This document shows positions 921-22,124 of a stretch of DNA of 58,931 bases, one piece after another (position 1 is the first letter of the stretch; the number at the start of each line of letters is the position of its first letter). Under the pieces are notes generated by a model that was given only the letters and a program-made list of their open reading frames with translations, searched no databases and was not told the origin of the DNA. This DNA is from Candidatus Latescibacterota bacterium. GTDB taxonomy: Bacteria; Latescibacterota; UBA2968. The position numbers and the translations under genes were made by a program. The stretch covers positions 5,146-64,076 of the forward strand of contig JAYODI010000024.1 of assembly GCA_038279365.1 (NCBI GenBank). Reading direction: 5' to 3'.

Positions 921-1349
921 ATGATTATGAAACCGGTGGTTGTTTATGATGGAGAATGTCGGTTTTGTACATGGAGCATGAATCGCATCCAAAAGTTAGA
1001 CAAACAAGATCAGTTTGCCTATTTACCACGCCAAGCTCCTGGAATTGAGTCGCGATTTCCGAAGTTAGCCGATTCGGATTTTAACACGGGCATGCGGTTG
1101 ATTGTGACAGATGATGAGATTTATGTGGGCGCAGACGCAGTTTATCAAATATATCGTCGTTTGCCACCTTTCCATTTTGTGGCGTGGGTATATCGTGTGC
1201 CCATTTTGCATTGGGTTTTTCGGGGGGGGTATGCGCTTATTGCCAAATATCGCCATTTGTCTGGGCGTGTGACCTGTGATACCAGTGCGTGCGATTTGTC
1301 ATTTGGCGCGCGTCAGGCTGTGACTGAGGAACAAAATAAAACGGTGTGA
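921..1349 (+). CDS. DCC1-like thiol-disulfide oxidoreductase (DUF393)
   Basis: N-terminal VVYDGECRFC motif and C-terminal Y-x-LIA-x-YRH. SD gaggag precedes ATG 921/927. Confidence 0.85.
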   Translation: MIMKPVVVYDGECRFCTWSMNRIQKLDKQDQFAYLPRQAPGIESRFPKLADSDFNTGMRLIVTDDEIYVGADAVYQIYRRLPPFHFVAWVYRVPILHWVFRGGYALIAKYRHLSGRVTCDTSACDLSFGARQAVTEEQNKTV

Positions 1350-1374
1350 TTGGTGCAAAAAGGATGAAAATAAG

Positions 1375-1409
1375 AAAAAACGCTATCGATGATTCGATGG
1401 CGTTTTTTT
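1375..1409 (+). terminator. Intrinsic terminator
   Basis: aaaaaacgctatcga-tgat-tcgatggcg-ttttttt. Confidence 0.75.
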
Positions 1410-1514
1410 ATGGAATAATTTCGCCTCTTTTGCATCTTATATTTGATAATGAAATTTGTCACAGGTCTTAAGTCGCGGTTTGTTCCCAAAAGCTTTTGAG
1501 ATTTTCTTGCGATT

Positions 1515-1556
1515 TGTGACCTGTGACCTGTGACCTGTGACCTGTGATCTGTGATT
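1515..1556. repeat. Heptamer tandem repeat (TGTGACC)x4 plus 2 degenerate copies
   Basis: tgtgacc at 1515, 1522, 1529 and 1536; tgtgatc at 1543; tgtgatt at 1550. Confidence 0.9.
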
Positions 1557-1562
1557 TTATCT

Positions 1563-3653
1563 ATGAACGAACTTGACGACATTCTCAAAGCCCAAGTGGG
1601 AGATCGTGAGGCATTTGGCCGTATTGTGATGCGCTATCGCGATCTTGTGTATGGCATTTGTTATGGGATGACGGCACAGGGTGTCGATGCCGAAGACTTG
1701 ACACATGAAGCATTTGTTGAAGCATTTTTAAAGTTGCATAGTTTGCGCGAACCCGAGCGTTTTGCTGGGTGGTTGCGCACACTGACATCGAATGTGTGTC
1801 GGATGTGGCATCGGCAAAAAAAACGTGAATATTTGGATGTATGGTCAGATAAATCTTTGGACGATACGTCAAGGAAGATGCCGTTAAATGGTTATTTTTC
1901 AAAGCTGTCCGAACCGCATCGTATGGCACTTGCTTTGCATTATTGGGAAGGGTTGTCATATGAAGAAATGGCGCGGTTTTTATCTATACCCATCGGTACT
2001 GTTATGAGTCGGTTAAGCCGAGCCAAACGAGCACTTAAAGATGTGATGGAACAAAGTGAGGATATGCATATGGTTGATGTGGAAGGACGTGATTTACAGG
2101 TGGAAGTGGATGCTGAAATTGATGTATTGCTTAAGCTTTTTGGTGAAGATGTGGATTCCATGGAGCGATTGAGCATCGTTTTAGAAAATTCACCCGACCG
2201 ATTTAGACAAGTGATTTGTCAAGTGGAAGATGGCGCAACTGTAGAGCAAGTGGGGATGTTGGTACGTCACTTTGGTCAATCTGCTGTTGAGGCAACTTTG
2301 GGATGCTATTTTGATGGTGATGTGCAAGACAAGGCCAAAGCTTTTGCTGTGTTGCAATTTTTGATTCATACTTGGGTTGGAAAAAATCCCGAAAAAACAT
2401 ACACGTTACCGATGGTGCCTGGGGCTTATTTGGTGTTGGATGCGGTTATGCAATCTGCACATTCTGTGGATGCACAAGTCGCGTTGCTGGTGGATCTCTT
2501 GGAATGCGCAGACGGCAGTGTGAGAATGGTTTTTGCGTGTGTATTGCGTGGTTATGAGACGACGGCATTTGATGTTTTGATGACACGTTTTCAAGAAATC
2601 ACAGATGTTGGTATTTGTCACAAGGCTGAGGGTTTTTTGAGTGCTTTACGGTTTTTTGGCAGTCGTTTTTTAAAAGATATTTTGGCTTTTTTGCGCAGTG
2701 AAGACCCTCATACCATTCGGTTGGGGCTTCAGGGTGCTGGGGGGGTAGCGGGTGTGTTGGATAAAGCTTGGGTAGATTCACAATCTGCGCAGGCAAGAAC
2801 GTTGGGCCGGCGTACACAGGGTTTGTTATTTGCCGATCAAATGGATGGAGAAGTTTTAAGCGAAATGACAAATCGCATTTCTGATTTGGTTTCTCATCCC
2901 AAACAAGACATTCGCATTTGGGCCATTGATCTTTTGAAATCTTTGCCCTTGGGTGTTCACTTGGTCAAATTGCGTACTTGTTTGTCTGCTCAAGATCAAG
3001 AGACACAAGTTGCGGCGATGCGTACGCTGGCCGAATTGGGAGATCGCGGGTGTGTTCAAATTTTAATTGACGCAGCTAAAACGCGTGAAGGACTGGTTTT
3101 GCGCAAGACCATTGAGGCCTTGGGGCATTTGCGTGCGCCAGAAGCACAACCGCTTATGGAAGCATTGCTCAATCATACAGATCGTGGTATACAAGAGGCT
3201 GCCATTTTGGGGTTGGGCAATGTGGGCAATGAAGATGCGCGTCGCAAGCTTCGAGAGATGACGGCTTCTTCAGACAAAAAGATTGCGCGATTGGCTGCAC
3301 GTGCGATTTATGGTGGCGATCAATATCGACACAGACCAAAATCATCGGCCCTCACACGTGCTCGTTTGCAAAAGATTCGCGGAGATGCACGGCCAGATCC
3401 AATGCTCCATCGGTCGGTGGTGGCAGCTGTGAGATGTTTACCTGAGGTGCGTGTTTATGAAGAGATTGATTTGACACGTCGCATCGCCAAGGTATGTGGT
3501 GATTATTCGACCACGCGACGCCACCTTGTTTCTGGGCGAGATCGGTTGATGACACGCGATCAGGGGCTTTACACGTTTACCCCATTAGGCGAAGCTGTGT
3601 GGCGTGTGGAACATTTTATTCAAGAACGGTTTTTGAGTTTGGAAAGATATTGA
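1563..3653 (+). CDS. ECF sigma-70 factor fused to HEAT repeats and a C-terminal DUF2087-like domain
   Basis: Sigma region 2 (GDREAFGRIV, DAEDLTHEAF, FAGWL) and region 4 (GLSYEEMARFLSIPIGTVMSRLSRAK). HEAT-like repeats around aa 440-590. C-terminal YEEIDL...DYSTTRRHLV...R..G.Y. Confidence 0.85.
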   Translation: MNELDDILKAQVGDREAFGRIVMRYRDLVYGICYGMTAQGVDAEDLTHEAFVEAFLKLHSLREPERFAGWLRTLTSNVCRMWHRQKKREYLDVWSDKSLDDTSRKMPLNGYFSKLSEPHRMALALHYWEGLSYEEMARFLSIPIGTVMSRLSRAKRALKDVMEQSEDMHMVDVEGRDLQVEVDAEIDVLLKLFGEDVDSMERLSIVLENSPDRFRQVICQVEDGATVEQVGMLVRHFGQSAVEATLGCYFDGDVQDKAKAFAVLQFLIHTWVGKNPEKTYTLPMVPGAYLVLDAVMQSAHSVDAQVALLVDLLECADGSVRMVFACVLRGYETTAFDVLMTRFQEITDVGICHKAEGFLSALRFFGSRFLKDILAFLRSEDPHTIRLGLQGAGGVAGVLDKAWVDSQSAQARTLGRRTQGLLFADQMDGEVLSEMTNRISDLVSHPKQDIRIWAIDLLKSLPLGVHLVKLRTCLSAQDQETQVAAMRTLAELGDRGCVQILIDAAKTREGLVLRKTIEALGHLRAPEAQPLMEALLNHTDRGIQEAAILGLGNVGNEDARRKLREMTASSDKKIARLAARAIYGGDQYRHRPKSSALTRARLQKIRGDARPDPMLHRSVVAAVRCLPEVRVYEEIDLTRRIAKVCGDYSTTRRHLVSGRDRLMTRDQGLYTFTPLGEAVWRVEHFIQERFLSLERY

Positions 3654-3661
3654 GGTGTATC

Positions 3662-4093
3662 ATGGATGAGACGATTACCGTAGAACAATTTAAAAAACGA
3701 TTGGTCGATTTGTTTGTGCGCAGTCGGCAGGAGAATTTGCCCAAGAAGTTTGAAGATCGACACATTTTGCTCAAGAGCATAGTGTTGGCCTATTTGGAAG
3801 TGGGACAAGACTATACAGAACGTGAAATCAATGCGGCCATTCAAGGGTGGATGATGACCATTGGTCGCGATTTGCGTGTGGATGTGTTTACCATTCGGCG
3901 AGAGTTGGTGGACCGTAAATATCTCGGGCGCGATAAGCGCGGTGCGTGTTATGAAGTAATTTTGGACGGTTATGGCTCTTCTCTTTTTGCGCCTGAGGTG
4001 GGTGCGGTCGATGTGATAGCAGTGATTGAAGAAGGTTGTGCAAAGGCCGAGGCACGTAAGCAGGTGTTTATGAAAAAACAAAAAACGGCTTGA
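3662..4093 (+). CDS. DUF2087-family protein
   Basis: LPKK...YTEREIN...DVFTIRRELVDRKYLGRDKRGACY. SD gaggtg precedes ATG 3662. Confidence 0.75.
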   Translation: MDETITVEQFKKRLVDLFVRSRQENLPKKFEDRHILLKSIVLAYLEVGQDYTEREINAAIQGWMMTIGRDLRVDVFTIRRELVDRKYLGRDKRGACYEVILDGYGSSLFAPEVGAVDVIAVIEEGCAKAEARKQVFMKKQKTA

Positions 4094-4118
4094 CACGTCT
4101 TGAGAGAATCTCTAAGTT
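4090..4118 (+). promoter_or_regulatory. Sigma70-type promoter for the trpS leader
   Basis: TTGACA(4090-4095)-17 nt-TAAGTT(4113-4118). Confidence 0.65.
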
Positions 4119-4166
4119 TTGTTTAGTGACTTGTGAATCCAGAGAACGAATTTGGAGATTTTGACG

Positions 4167-4295
4167 ATGATTTCTAGCAGACACCATACAGATGTTGCAA
4201 CGACTTGCGCCGTGCGCAATGTTGTTGTTTTGGGTGTGTCTGCCTCTGTTACGGGTTGGTGGTGGTCTGGTGATATATCTATAGGCCAACCGTAA
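4167..4295 (+). CDS. Trp leader peptide 1 (42 aa, WWW)
   Basis: SD ggag at 4154-4157. Peptide MISSRHHTDVATTCAVRNVVVLGVSASVTGWWWSGDISIGQP*, with TGGx3 at 4257-4265. Confidence 0.8.
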   Translation: MISSRHHTDVATTCAVRNVVVLGVSASVTGWWWSGDISIGQP

Positions 4296-4318
4296 CGGAA
4301 TTGTAAATACCAAAGTTT

Positions 4319-4357
4319 AAAAATCCGCCGTCGGTTGCCCGACGGCGGATTTTTTTT
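4319..4357 (+). terminator. Attenuator terminator 1
   Basis: aaaaatccgccgtcgg-ttgc-ccgacggcggat-ttttttt. The 5' arm and loop can alternatively pair with caaccg...cgga (4287-4299). Confidence 0.9.
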
Positions 4358-4408
4358 GCGATCAATTAAGGCGATGAGATTTTTAAGATACAGGTTTTTG
4401 AGGTGAGT

Positions 4409-4567
4409 ATGATGTTACAAAAATTTTATACAAAACAATTTGCAACAATCAGTCGATGGTGGTGGCAGGTAAAAGGCAAGGTTTGTCCACCACCGGATAT
4501 CAAGCGTTTATTTATGTGGTTTGCACCGCGCGCTACCGGAAGGTGGCGCGCGTTTTTTTATGGTTAA
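4409..4567 (+). CDS. Trp leader peptide 2 (52 aa, WWW plus 2 further W, and PPP)
   Basis: SD gaggtg at 4400-4405, ATG at 4409/4412. Peptide MMLQKFYTKQFATISRWWWQVKGKVCPPPDIKRLFMWFAPRATGRWRAFFYG*, with TGGx3 at 4457-4465. Confidence 0.75.
   Translation: MMLQKFYTKQFATISRWWWQVKGKVCPPPDIKRLFMWFAPRATGRWRAFFYG
4527..4559 (+). terminator. Attenuator terminator 2
   Basis: 11-bp stem cgcgcgctacc-GGAA-ggtggcgcgcg followed by T7. Confidence 0.85.
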
Positions 4568-4661
4568 GCGAAGCTAATTTATTCTGTTCAGACAAGTTCA
4601 TTTTTCAATTTTTGTGGCATCGCAAATTAAAATGGGAGAGATTCCCCAAAGGAGATCCGTT

Positions 4662-5660
4662 ATGAATCGCACCATTGTTTTGACAGGAGATCGTCCTACT
4701 GGGCGTTTGCATTTGGGACATTATGTGGGTTCGTTGAAGAACCGATTTGAAATGCAAGAGGATCATCAATGTTTTTTTATGATTGCCGATTACCAAGCAT
4801 TGACGACTCATCAAGAGCATACACAAGCGTTGGAATCATATGTAAGAGAGATGATATTGGATTATTTGGCGGCGGGTTTTGACCCCGAAAAGAGTGTGTG
4901 TTTTTTGCAATCTCAGGTGCCACAGCTTGCCGAGTTGACAATGATTTTGAGCAACTTGGTTTCTTTGCCCAGATTGTTGCGTAATCCAACCATTAAAGAA
5001 GAAATGGATAAGATGGGTTTAGACGACCGTGCGACATATGGGTTTGTGGGATATCCCGTGTCACAAGTGGCAGATATTTTGTTGTTTCGCCCACGCTATG
5101 TACCTGTTGGCCCCGATCAGCGGCCACATATTGAGTTGGCGCAAGATGTGGCAGAGCGATTTAATCGCTTATATGGCGATGTGTTTCCCATTCCAGAAGG
5201 TGTGTATGGCGAGCGACTGAAGGGCACTGATGGGATGCATAAAATGGGCAAGAGTTATAACAATGCCATTGACTTAACAGATTCTGAGGCGGGTGTTTTA
5301 ATGAAAGTGACGACAATGATGACCGACCCTGGGCGTGTGCGTGTTACAGATTCAGGATGCCCTGAGGTGTGCTCGGCATTTCATTATCGAGAAGTTTTTG
5401 ATGCGAGACAAGCCAATCGGGTTGCTGATGCCTGTCGGGCTGGAGCGATTGGGTGTACAACGTGTAAGGAGGATTTGGCACTGGTTTTAAATGATTTTTT
5501 GGCACCGTTTCGAGAACGTCGTGCTGCGTTTGAACAAAAGCCCAATTTGGTACGCGACATTCTTCATTTAGGATGTTCAAAAGCGCGCATTGAGGGACAA
5601 AGGACTTTGGAGAGGGTGAAAGAAGTGATGGGTTTGCGGTATGAAGGGTTATTGGGGTAA
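4662..5660 (+). CDS. trpS: Tryptophanyl-tRNA synthetase (TrpRS II-like)
   Basis: Motifs TGDRPTGRLHLGH, YPVSQVADI, VPVGPDQ and KMGKS. SD aaggag precedes ATG 4662. Confidence 0.95.
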   Translation: MNRTIVLTGDRPTGRLHLGHYVGSLKNRFEMQEDHQCFFMIADYQALTTHQEHTQALESYVREMILDYLAAGFDPEKSVCFLQSQVPQLAELTMILSNLVSLPRLLRNPTIKEEMDKMGLDDRATYGFVGYPVSQVADILLFRPRYVPVGPDQRPHIELAQDVAERFNRLYGDVFPIPEGVYGERLKGTDGMHKMGKSYNNAIDLTDSEAGVLMKVTTMMTDPGRVRVTDSGCPEVCSAFHYREVFDARQANRVADACRAGAIGCTTCKEDLALVLNDFLAPFRERRAAFEQKPNLVRDILHLGCSKARIEGQRTLERVKEVMGLRYEGLLG

Positions 5661-5727
5661 TGCTTCATCTCGTGCGGGGGCCATTTGAGCGATTTGCTCG
5701 CTGAGACCTCGCACGGGTAGGGCCGAA

Positions 5728-6309
5728 TTATTGTTCAATGCCCAATTCTTCAAATATCTTTTCCCACCGTTCGGGATGGCTTTCATGTGTGTTAAGTGGG
5801 CGAAATTGTGCGCGCAAATAAGATTTGATGGCGGCCAACCGCCAGTCGTCGGTGAGCAAGTAGGCTTTTTTATGACCGAGTTCTTTGATGCGGCGAAGTA
5901 CGACAGCATTTAGGAGATGTCCCAACCCTTTGCCGTGGTGTTCTGGTAGGGCGGCAACCATATGAACAAGACCTGTGTCTGGGCTTACCTTGTCACTTGT
6001 CCAGGCGCAGGTGCTGGCAACGGGGCTGTTTGCATAGGTGATAAAAAAAAGATTTTCAGGTTTGAATCGTTCATTGTGTGTGAGGCGTTCTCTGCATTTT
6101 TCTATGGTCCAATTTTCGCCCACCTGGCCTTCCATGATGCGACACCAAGCGGGTTCATCTCCTTTGCGATAGGTGCGTATGGCATACCCTTCAGGAATAT
6201 GTATGGGGGGCAGATCTTCTAAGTGGTCGCGAATCATTTCCAGTTGAGGACGTGGTGCTGTAGATATTGGGGGGGAGGGCAAAAGGAATGATTTGAGCCA
6301 ATTGAACAT
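5728..6309 (-). CDS. GNAT-family N-acetyltransferase
   Basis: Acetyl-CoA motif VAALPEHHGKGLG and AAIKSYLRAQF. Confidence 0.85.
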   Translation of the reverse strand: MFNWLKSFLLPSPPISTAPRPQLEMIRDHLEDLPPIHIPEGYAIRTYRKGDEPAWCRIMEGQVGENWTIEKCRERLTHNERFKPENLFFITYANSPVASTCAWTSDKVSPDTGLVHMVAALPEHHGKGLGHLLNAVVLRRIKELGHKKAYLLTDDWRLAAIKSYLRAQFRPLNTHESHPERWEKIFEELGIEQ

Positions 6310-6686
6310 AGTATTTTCCCTTAATTGATGCCACGCAAATAAAGTCACGCATTTCAACCATTTGAAATGCACGAAGGCATTGCAAATCCTTTGAATCAAA
6401 ACGTTGTCTACACAAGTTTTGTGGTGTTTGTAAACGCGTGTGTTTTGCCTGATAAACGGGTAGGAGAATGAAGGTCTTTTGCATAATGTATTAGACTGAT
6501 TTTGAATGATGGCCTATAATATTGATGGCTTGTATGTCTGTCAAGAACGAAGACGCGTTTTGTTGTTTGTCGATACCGGGTTGTTAAATGTGTCTTATGG
6601 CAATCTGTATGGAGATGATTTGGGCAATAGATTGTGGGTATTTGCACATGTTTTGTGAATGTCCGTTGTTATTGCCTTACTTTTTC

Positions 6687-20446: not shown

Positions 20447-22124
20447 TATCCATCCAGCAATTATTTTGTTGGCAGGAAGCGTTTTGTTGGCACTATTGCC
20501 CTCAAAACCACGTCGTGTGGTGGCATTGTTGCTTCCCATTTTAAGCTTTGTCAATTTGTTGGCCATACCCGAAGGCACAATGTGGCAGGTGTCGTGGGGT
20601 GGTTTTGAGTTGACGGTGTTGCGCATCGACCGTTTAAGCTTGCTGTTTGGTTATTTGTTTCACTTGGCTGCATTTATTGCCACCATTTATTCATTACACC
20701 TTGAAGATCGCCTGCAAATTACCACCGGCTTGATGTATGCGGGTTCTGCCATTGGTGCTGTGTTTGCTGGTGATTTGGTGACGCTGTTTATTTTTTGGGA
20801 ATTGTTGGCTGTTACGTCTGTGTTTCAGGTTTGGGCAAGGGGTGGGCAGCGGGCCTTGGATTCGGGCACGCGGTATTTGTTGATGCATATTTCTTCTGGG
20901 CTGTTGTTGTTGGCAGGAACGGCCCTTCATTACTTGCATACCGGTTCTTTGGCATTTGATCACATAGGTCTGGGTTCTTCTTATGCCTGGCTCATTCTTT
21001 TGGCCATAGGCATTAAGTGTGCCTTCCCATTATTTCACACGTGGTTGGTTGATGCCTATCCTGAGGCCACGCCAACAGGTACTGTATTTTTAAGTGCGTT
21101 TACCACCAAAGCGGCCATTTATGCGCTTGCTCGTGGTTTTGCTGGGGAAGAGGTGTTGATTCTTATTGGCGGTGTGATGACGATGTTCCCCATTTTCTTT
21201 GCCGTTATCGAAAATGATCTGCGACGTGTGTTGGGGTATAGCATGATCAATCAAATTGGATTTATGGTTGTTGGGATAGGATTGGGCCCTGGCATGGGTG
21301 TGAATGGTGCTGTGGCCCATGCGTTTAATGATGTGATCTTTAAAGGATTGCTGTTTATGTCGATGGGTGCTGTATTGTATCGCACGGGGAAAATGAATGG
21401 GTCTGAGTTGGGTGGGTTATACAAGTCGATGCCATGGACATGTATGTGTTGTATTATAGGTGCATCGTCGATTTCGGCCTTTCCTTTGTTTAGCGGATTT
21501 GTGAGTAAATCGATGGTGATGCAAGCGGCATCTAATGGTGGCTATATTGTGATTTGGCTGGCATTGCTTTTTGCTTCTGCAGGTGTGTTCCACCACGCGG
21601 GTATTAAAATTCCATTTTTTGCTTTTTACGCCCACGATTCGGGCATTCGATGCAAAGAAGCACCTTTGAATATGCGTGTTGCCATGACCATAGCGGCTGT
21701 GTTGTGTGTGTTTATTGGTTCTTATCCCGCATTTCTTTATGATTTGTTGCCTTATCCTGTCGAATACGAACCGTATACCACGACGCATGTGGTCTTGCAG
21801 TTACAGGTGTTGTTCTTTTCGGCCTTGGCATTTACTGTGTTGAAGCTCACGAATATTTACCCGCCCGAGTTGGCATCAACCAATTTGGATGTCGATTGGG
21901 TGTCACGTCGTTTGTTCCCCAATGTTGTGCGTGGTTTTGTGCGGATCGGTGGGCCAATCAAAGACGGTTTTTTTGAAGGTGGCAAAGCACTGGTTCGCTC
22001 TTGTATTGGTTTGGTTCAATCACAGCACGACACACAAGGTGTTTGGGGTCGTACTTGGCTCACGCAAAACAGCGTGACGATTGTTGTTGTGTTCTTGGCT
22101 GTCTATTTGTTGTTTTATTATTAA
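20439..22124 (+). CDS. Third antiporter-like subunit (MrpA/NuoL-like with C-terminal extension)
   Basis: FIFWE, HTWLVDAYPEAT, RRVLGYS and FKGLLFM. Confidence 0.88.
   Translation: MGNIHPAIILLAGSVLLALLPSKPRRVVALLLPILSFVNLLAIPEGTMWQVSWGGFELTVLRIDRLSLLFGYLFHLAAFIATIYSLHLEDRLQITTGLMYAGSAIGAVFAGDLVTLFIFWELLAVTSVFQVWARGGQRALDSGTRYLLMHISSGLLLLAGTALHYLHTGSLAFDHIGLGSSYAWLILLAIGIKCAFPLFHTWLVDAYPEATPTGTVFLSAFTTKAAIYALARGFAGEEVLILIGGVMTMFPIFFAVIENDLRRVLGYSMINQIGFMVVGIGLGPGMGVNGAVAHAFNDVIFKGLLFMSMGAVLYRTGKMNGSELGGLYKSMPWTCMCCIIGASSISAFPLFSGFVSKSMVMQAASNGGYIVIWLALLFASAGVFHHAGIKIPFFAFYAHDSGIRCKEAPLNMRVAMTIAAVLCVFIGSYPAFLYDLLPYPVEYEPYTTTHVVLQLQVLFFSALAFTVLKLTNIYPPELASTNLDVDWVSRRLFPNVVRGFVRIGGPIKDGFFEGGKALVRSCIGLVQSQHDTQGVWGRTWLTQNSVTIVVVFLAVYLLFYY

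Follow-up and report, generated by a model that had tools for sequence, protein, structure and literature searches.

Attenuation by leader peptides is a textbook mechanism which usually provides one gate per operon, the classical examples being trpL and pheST of Escherichia coli. The present analysis concerns the leader of trpS2, a gene for an accessory tryptophan–tRNA ligase, in a 58,931-nucleotide (nt) stretch of DNA from a Candidatus Latescibacterota bacterium (contig JAYODI010000024.1 of assembly GCA_038279365.1). This leader is predicted to carry two ribosome-mediated tryptophan attenuators in series and thereby to sense tryptophan at two gates, a reading to which we assign a probability of roughly 0.72. 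All coordinates are positions within the complete stretch (the window); loci of relatives are designated by L, genera by g and families by f, each followed by a number.

In Streptomyces, the gene for an indolmycin-resistant auxiliary tryptophanyl-tRNA synthetase (TrpRS) is reportedly controlled by an attenuator. This enzyme is listed in a review (PMC9437257). For trpS and leuS of Streptomyces, upstream attenuators of the classical type, one per gene, have been predicted (PMC1262725). The trpS2 leader shares with the attenuators of Streptomyces and E. coli the run of cognate codons in a small open reading frame (ORF), the mutually exclusive hairpins, the intrinsic terminator and the association with an amino acid or synthetase gene. 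It differs from them by two full modules in series, by its occurrence in the Latescibacterota and by a second ORF (ORF 2) lacking a stop codon before the terminator.

For tandem attenuators, a singular example has been described in the mgtCBR leader of Salmonella, whose two short ORFs sense ATP and proline (PMC3641672). The authors contrast this leader with one having two intrinsic terminators, and the comparison with the metE leader implies that mgtCBR is without these. Common to the mgtCBR and trpS2 leaders are two short ORFs, each with alternative structures of its own that act, or in case of trpS2 would act, independently; moreover, mgtP contains three consecutive Pro codons. The first-pass annotation of the stretch, made by a model from the sequence alone, knew of no serial leader-peptide attenuators; mgtCBR provides a tandem precedent, albeit with ORFs for different signals, whereas in the trpS2 leader Trp runs are found in both ORFs, each of which is combined with a strong intrinsic terminator. 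A full-text literature search, with most subscription journals outside its coverage, retrieved no paper on same-amino-acid leader-peptide attenuators in series.

Tandem T-boxes on trp operons are reported to represent the most enriched case of tandem riboswitches and to be exclusive to Bacillota (PMC12452182). They likewise consist of two serial sensors for one signal (charging of tRNA-Trp), each with its own terminator, and are presumed to allow tighter and steeper control. In contrast to the trpS2 leader, T-boxes bind the tRNA directly and need no translation, and no T-box is detectable here. Two same-amino-acid gates in series would appear as the translational counterpart of tandem Trp T-boxes.

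Two further systems resemble single aspects of the leader. The leader of E. coli pyrBI, which responds to UTP by way of polymerase pausing, has an ORF that passes through the attenuator hairpin, in common with ORF 2 here. The pyr operon of Bacillus subtilis has three serial, protein-mediated PyrR attenuators with genes between them, comparable in this respect to L003, L009 and family f2 (see below). Unlike the trpS2 leader, neither pyrBI nor PyrR relies on regulatory codon runs. The sequence comparisons suggest a known mechanism in a new arrangement, i.e., tandem leader-peptide attenuators for the same signal, the second of which is unusually built. Ribosome-mediated attenuation would thereby be extended to the Latescibacterota, an uncultured phylum in which the arrangement is retained in some twenty species.

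Predicted attenuator modules of the trpS2 leader

The gene order on the plus strand is DUF2087 gene, promoter-like site (P1), module 1, module 2 and trpS2 (Table 1). The positions proposed in the first-pass annotation for the promoter-like hexamers, Shine–Dalgarno (SD) sequences, start codons, Trp-Trp-Trp runs and terminators are borne out by the sequence and the ORF list, and folding yields both terminators as described there. Both are also present in the centroid fold of 4125–4665 (z = −5.37), a stability reached by none of 100 shuffled sequences. The genome (6.03 Mb) was scanned for ORFs of at most 70 amino acids (aa) with TGGTGG and a terminator-like hairpin within 170 nt, which gave 120 matches, nine of them with three TGG codons. 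Since perfect stems of 11 pairs occur among these nine only in the two matches of the trpS2 leader (6–7 pairs in the other seven), the pair of Trp leaders exceeds what is expected by chance. The two modules were also correctly recognized as unrelated in sequence: in blastn searches against the genome each module matched only itself, i.e., no further copies of either were found.

Conservation was counted across 25 distinct loci with a trpS2 orthologue (duplicates removed), module 1 being aligned in 23 of them. Module 2 is present in all 25 loci and the terminator of module 1 in 24 (missing from L012). Both Trp-run ORFs are kept in the leaders of the relatives; loss of these ORFs had been named beforehand as evidence against attenuation. 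Outside of the Trp runs the peptides diverge, while an ATG preceded by a purine-rich stretch is retained for both ORFs.

Module 1 combines SD sequence and start codon, Trp run, early stop codon, terminator and an antiterminator competing with a 1:2 hairpin, and in every feature legible from the sequence it is a classical attenuator. The stop codon of ORF 1 is located within segment 2. The 1:2 hairpin represents the minimum free energy (MFE) structure of 4240–4300 (free energy ΔG −22.6), and with a ribosome placed on the Trp run the antiterminator becomes the MFE structure of 4272–4340 (ΔG −17.5), occupying the 5′ arm of the terminator. The latter folds (4319–4358) into a hairpin of 16 pairs followed by a U-tract. 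Homologues of ORF 1 were found in all 23 aligned loci, with TGGTGG invariant and a third TGG in eight; terminator 1 likewise aligns throughout these loci, as does the stop codon within segment 2. Terminator 1 is paired in 99.2 % of the cells of this alignment, with two pairs altered on both sides. The antiterminator sequesters at least six of the ten nt of the terminator 5′ arm in 24/24 loci and exceeds at least 75 of 100 shuffles in stability at 23 of these 24. Its register differs between genera (CAACCG:CGGTTG in g1 and g4 vs GCTGACGG:CCGTCAGC in g5), the outcome being the same.

Module 2 departs from the classical type since ORF 2 runs through terminator 2, a point not noted in the first-pass annotation. 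Its core is segment 2, CCACCACCGG, which is complementary both to the Trp codons of ORF 2 (via CCACCACC at 4487–4494) and to CCGG-AA-GGTGG atop terminator 2. Terminator 2 has a ΔG of −23.7 kcal/mol (fold of 4520–4560), nine of its 11 pairs in the consensus scan being G-C; over 13 columns, 87.1 % of the cells are paired and three pairs are altered on both sides. Across the 25 loci, the 1:2 pairing is kept in 95.5 % of the cells, and antiterminator 2, composed of the pairing with the terminator top and a short inner helix, in 97.5 % with one compensatory pair. With a ribosome on the Trp run, antiterminator 2 is the MFE structure of 4480–4546 (ΔG −20.8). Folding of partial transcripts that simulate the stalled state engages every one of the five nt of GGUGG with segment 2 at 21 of the 25 loci, as compared to a mean of 0.6–2.5 nt in shuffled sequences. 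Antiterminator 2 engages the loop and the 3′ arm of the terminator rather than its 5′ arm alone; a version formed from 5′ arm and loop only was predicted for 19/25 loci, proved no better than shuffles and was discarded.

The codons involved are well retained: ORF 2 contains three Trp codons in 20 and two in five of the 25 loci, and Pro-Pro-Pro is encoded in 24, with Pro-Gln-Pro in L009. The spacer between the Trp and Pro runs measures 21, 24 or 27 nt, i.e., it varies in steps of 3 nt.

Table 1. Features of the trpS2 leader and adjacent genes (window coordinates)
Feature	Position	Strand	Details	Basis
DUF2087 gene	3659..4093	+	immediately 5′ of the leader	Pfam PF09860, 58.2 bits
Promoter-like site P1	4090..4118	+	TTGACA 4090–4095, TAAGTT 4113–4118, spacer 17 nt	sequence reading
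Leader ORF 1	4167..4295	+	42 aa; SD GGAG 4153–4156, spacing 10 nt, ATG 4167, stop 4293–4295	sequence and ORF list
Module 1, segments 1 and 2	4248..4296	+	4248–4259 pairing with 4286–4296	folding
Trp-Trp-Trp codons of ORF 1	4257..4265	+	TGG TGG TGG	sequence reading
Module 1, antiterminator	4287..4337	+	4287–4299 pairing with 4324–4337	folding
Intrinsic terminator 1	4319..4357	+	ΔG −27.2 kcal/mol	folding
Leader ORF 2	4409..4567	+	52 aa; SD GAGGTG 4400–4405, ATG 4409/4412, stop 4565–4567	sequence and ORF list
Trp-Trp-Trp codons of ORF 2	4457..4465	+	segment 1 of module 2	sequence reading
Module 2, segment 2	4487..4496	+	CCACCACCGG, encodes Pro-Pro-Pro-Asp	pairing and ORF reading
Intrinsic terminator 2	4527..4559	+	11-pair stem, GGAA loop, U-tract	folding and consensus scan
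trpS2	4662..5660	+	accessory tryptophan–tRNA ligase	TIGR00233

On the basis of the sequence elements, how well these are conserved and which alternative pairings are predicted, we infer dependence on tryptophan, the direction in which module 2 responds and a multiplicative effect of the two gates, as follows. A single promoter (approximately 4090–4118) would drive the whole leader RNA. With ample Trp-tRNA, the ribosome would proceed as far as the stop codon of ORF 1 within segment 2, and formation of terminator 1 would follow; in case of stalling on the Trp run, segment 2 would engage the terminator's 5′ arm, allowing the polymerase to continue. At module 2, stalling of the ribosome on the Trp run would expose CCACCACCGG, whose pairing with loop and upper arms of terminator 2 prevents termination, and a ribosome moving past the Trp run would cover the Pro-Pro-Pro segment, allowing terminator 2 to form. 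The Pro-Pro-Pro codons, being identical with segment 2, may slow the ribosome there in place of a stop codon. Messenger RNA for trpS2 would be made only with both gates open; basal expression should accordingly be low, and shortage of charged tRNA-Trp should elicit a steeper response. Thus, expression of trpS2 is probably confined to times of scarce charged tryptophan tRNA, which would mark the accessory TrpRS as a starvation-induced gene. In many species this gene is internally deleted. The leader could serve as a natural, compact test case for whether serial attenuators sharpen a response, and module 2, with its ORF through the terminator and Pro-Pro-Pro on the switching segment, could reveal another way of timing ribosome and polymerase.

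The organism probably uses leader-peptide attenuation elsewhere, since the trp operon of the same genome has such a leader (contig C41, approximately 97,980–98,210, minus strand; inside L038): TTGACA-type hexamers, a 25-codon ORF containing W-Y-W and Y-Y-Y, a terminator and then trpE. This operon comprises trpE, G, D, C and F followed by trpB and trpA, and includes a tyrosyl-tRNA synthetase-like gene that may explain the Tyr run of the leader.

Serial arrangement and modular rearrangements in relatives

TTGACA, a 17-nt spacer and TAnnnT occupy matching positions of the alignment in L003, L011, genera g1 and g6, most loci of g5 and L167. Between the U-tract of terminator 1 and the ATG of ORF 2 lie 51 nt in the window. 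Among 24 loci, this distance amounts to 14 nt in 12 and does not exceed 238 nt in 22, the modules of the latter being adjacent. A gap of 14 nt leaves no space for a promoter; therefore, module 2 can be reached in these loci only via read-through of terminator 1. L167 is one of five loci retrieved by a metagenome search with the protein; on this contig (protein 87 % identical) the DUF2087 gene, promoter-like site, module 1, module 2 and trpS2 follow each other as in the window.

A pattern of module 2 was detected in 30 of 168 genomes of the phylum, the reversed pattern serving as control in none. The matches are distributed over families f1 (21, including the genome of the window), f2 (6), f3 (1) and f4 (2); those of f4 look chance-like and lie inside coding sequence. 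Most of family f1 has TACC instead of CACC within the pattern. In public records, the pattern occurs beside the gene in 13 of the 80 loci listed; these coincide precisely with the 13 loci that have a trpS2 homologue, and all belong to Candidatus Latescibacterota or Latescibacteria.

The modules are not always contiguous. In L003, a sister species within the genus of the window, a Tautomerase_2 gene (1338–1721, minus strand) separates them, and of the DUF2087 gene approximately the last 36 codons are all that remains upstream; in L009 the DUF2087 gene itself lies between the modules and thus on the opposite side of module 1 as compared to the window. Module 2 stands alone in L012 and L159. Because of the intervening genes in L003 and L009 and the solitary module 2 in L012 and L159, the modules can work singly. 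In family f2 (L022, L027, L029, L160 and L164), the order is promoter-like site, leader ORF with a WW or WWW run, terminator, housekeeping-type trpS, homologue of module 2 and another trpS that is more divergent; L025 and L026, which lack this additional trpS gene, still have module 2 or a remnant thereof. Taken together, the modules appear to be autonomous units combined in several ways, the adjacent form being the commonest.

These rearrangements bear on the alternative that both modules are real Trp attenuators and their adjacency is a leftover of operon-internal attenuators after loss or relocation of an intervening gene, with no selected gain in sensitivity. The order of Trp leader, gene, module 2 and trpS2 in L009 and L003, the corresponding organization around the housekeeping-type trpS in f2 including L160, and the mobile position of the DUF2087 gene would all be expected from such a history. 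However, the adjacent form prevails in 22/24 loci of three genera and also in L167, and the tautomerase form looks derived within g1, since both the window and L167 have adjacent modules. In addition, a profile (nhmmer) of module 1 did not match the f2 leaders of L022–L031 at E-values up to 1, and a common origin of module 1 and the f2 Trp leader is therefore not claimed. Serial terminators must moreover multiply if both work, whatever their origin. Adjacency as a mere leftover is accordingly considered rather improbable.

Reading frame of ORF 2 and points against two-gate control

Several observations weigh against two serial tryptophan gates. The relatives are close kin, so that the counts given above are not independent. 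Their paired columns are mostly invariant and covariation is correspondingly sparse, with none in the 1:2 helix of module 2; thus, the alignment of leaders recommended in the first-pass annotation supports the Trp runs and yields covariation only in the few pairs reported above for the two terminators and antiterminator 2. The energy of antiterminator 2 is unexceptional, with five or fewer of 100 shuffles as stable at just one of 25 loci, and when folded up to the loop alone 14–94 of 100 shuffles are as stable. With respect to transcription, a consensus scan found no plus-strand promoter in 3500–6500, a weak negative since it also missed P1 (the −10 hexamer of which matches at 3/6 positions only), and a −10-like TAAGAT at 4384–4389 represents a possible internal start in this genus. 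Five metatranscriptomes hold 6–10 % of the sampled words of the stretch; four metatranscriptomes gave six short contigs (depth 2–4.5), none of them over 4021–4502, and the contigs reveal no 3′ ends. A single RNA contig of 151 nt (4503–4653) spans terminator 2, with carry-over of DNA being possible. Furthermore, an in-frame loss of approximately 86 residues, including the KMGKS loop and a four-Cys region, affects the trpS2 product in 10 of 23 assessable loci (L013–L021 and L072, genus g5), both modules nevertheless being kept; what remains may be a TrpRS-like protein that is inactive or serves another purpose.

The most specific objection concerns ORF 2, which is open through terminator 2 in all 25 loci, its stop codon lying 6–157 nt or more past the U-tract, so that a closely coupled ribosome could suppress termination despite plentiful tryptophan. 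This frame would suit a pyrBI-like module 2, in which a ribosome close to the polymerase blocks the hairpin, so that fast translation gives read-through, and stalling at the Trp or Pro run uncouples ribosome and polymerase and favours termination, or an ORF 2 serving translational coupling into trpS. In line with coupling, ORF 2 extends up to or into the start of trpS at 10 of the 25 loci (L005, L012–L015, L020, L071, L072, L144, L152), by an ATGA overlap in two, by overlap in another frame in six and in frame with trpS without intervening stop codon in two, and the ordinary energy of antiterminator 2 also agrees with either version. Yet, the open frame may merely reflect base composition: as the other two frames across the stretch from ORF 2 through the terminator are mostly stop-free as well (no stop in both at 19/25 loci), it is not discriminated as a selected trait. 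The frame is moreover not conserved past the Pro codons, where indels of 2, 4 and 6 nt occur. The dual complementarity of CCACCACCG is kept at the percentages given above and is not needed for coupling, and shutting off an extra TrpRS in tryptophan shortage would make little physiological sense. Overall, a pyrBI-like or coupling function of module 2 is quite unlikely.

In case of tryptophan attenuation at both modules, the Pro-Pro-Pro codons could, as a speculation, add sensitivity to proline or elongation factor P (EF-P). Synonymous variation in these codons does not discriminate, since RNA pairing and peptide constraint predict one pattern. With more doubt than credence, one may go further and propose that CCACCACCG is at once segment 2 and a polyproline brake replacing the leader stop codon, which parks the non-starved ribosome until the terminator has formed. 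Read-through would then integrate the state of Trp-tRNA with that of proline and EF-P, and modules 1 and 2 together would constitute an ultrasensitive switch with two gates, conserved in three Latescibacterota families and governing an accessory TrpRS that has a Cys motif (probably Fe-S).

That ribosomes do not read the leader, which would instead bind a protein or ligand (as a riboswitch, a T-box or a target of the TRAP type) and contain Trp codons only incidentally, is hardly credible: the very high nucleotide conservation of module 2 (mean column identity 78 %), of which a conserved peptide could be a by-product, would fit, but different genera retain the start codons with purine-rich stretches and the in-frame Trp runs, the remaining peptide diverging, the spacer between Trp and Pro runs changes by 3-nt steps only, and no Rfam family reached the gathering score. 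The respective cmscan (3500–6000, E-values up to 10) yielded 11 weak matches, every one of them due to the terminators; neither the Trp leader (enterobacterial trpL RNA family) nor a T-box was among them.

Accessory trpS2 and neighbouring genes

The product of trpS2 is assigned to the tryptophan–tRNA ligases by TIGR00233 (271.8 bits; cut-off 176.75). Its best relative of solved structure is 2g36_A (E = 3e-82), followed by the TrpRS II entries 2a4m and 1yi8. The first-pass annotation correctly placed the modules before a trpS gene; the target is, however, an accessory paralogue rather than the sole trpS. A second trpS on contig C184 shares 45 % identity with the copy of the window and has neither a Trp leader nor a terminator upstream. 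This type was found in 40 of 41 related genomes, and the type of the window is limited to part of family f1. The existence of a second, leaderless trpS of a nearly universal type is the reason for regarding the window copy as accessory. Four Cys residues of the trpS2 product (encoded at 5400–5480) align with four Cys of 2g36_A, which presumably binds a 4Fe-4S cluster; the housekeeping copy is devoid of them.

Upstream of the leader, the DUF2087 gene shares 62 % identity (tblastn) with 741–1166 of L009, and only a C-terminal remnant of it is present in L003. It is preceded in the window by an ORF of 700 aa (1551–3653) with an N-terminal ECF sigma-70 domain (TIGR02937, 76.7 bits) and a long C-terminal region, an orthologue of which is located directly 5′ of module 2 in L012. 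Directly 5′ of the start of the C184 housekeeping trpS, four tandem GCCATTT units are found (approximately 21,950–21,990; inside L002).

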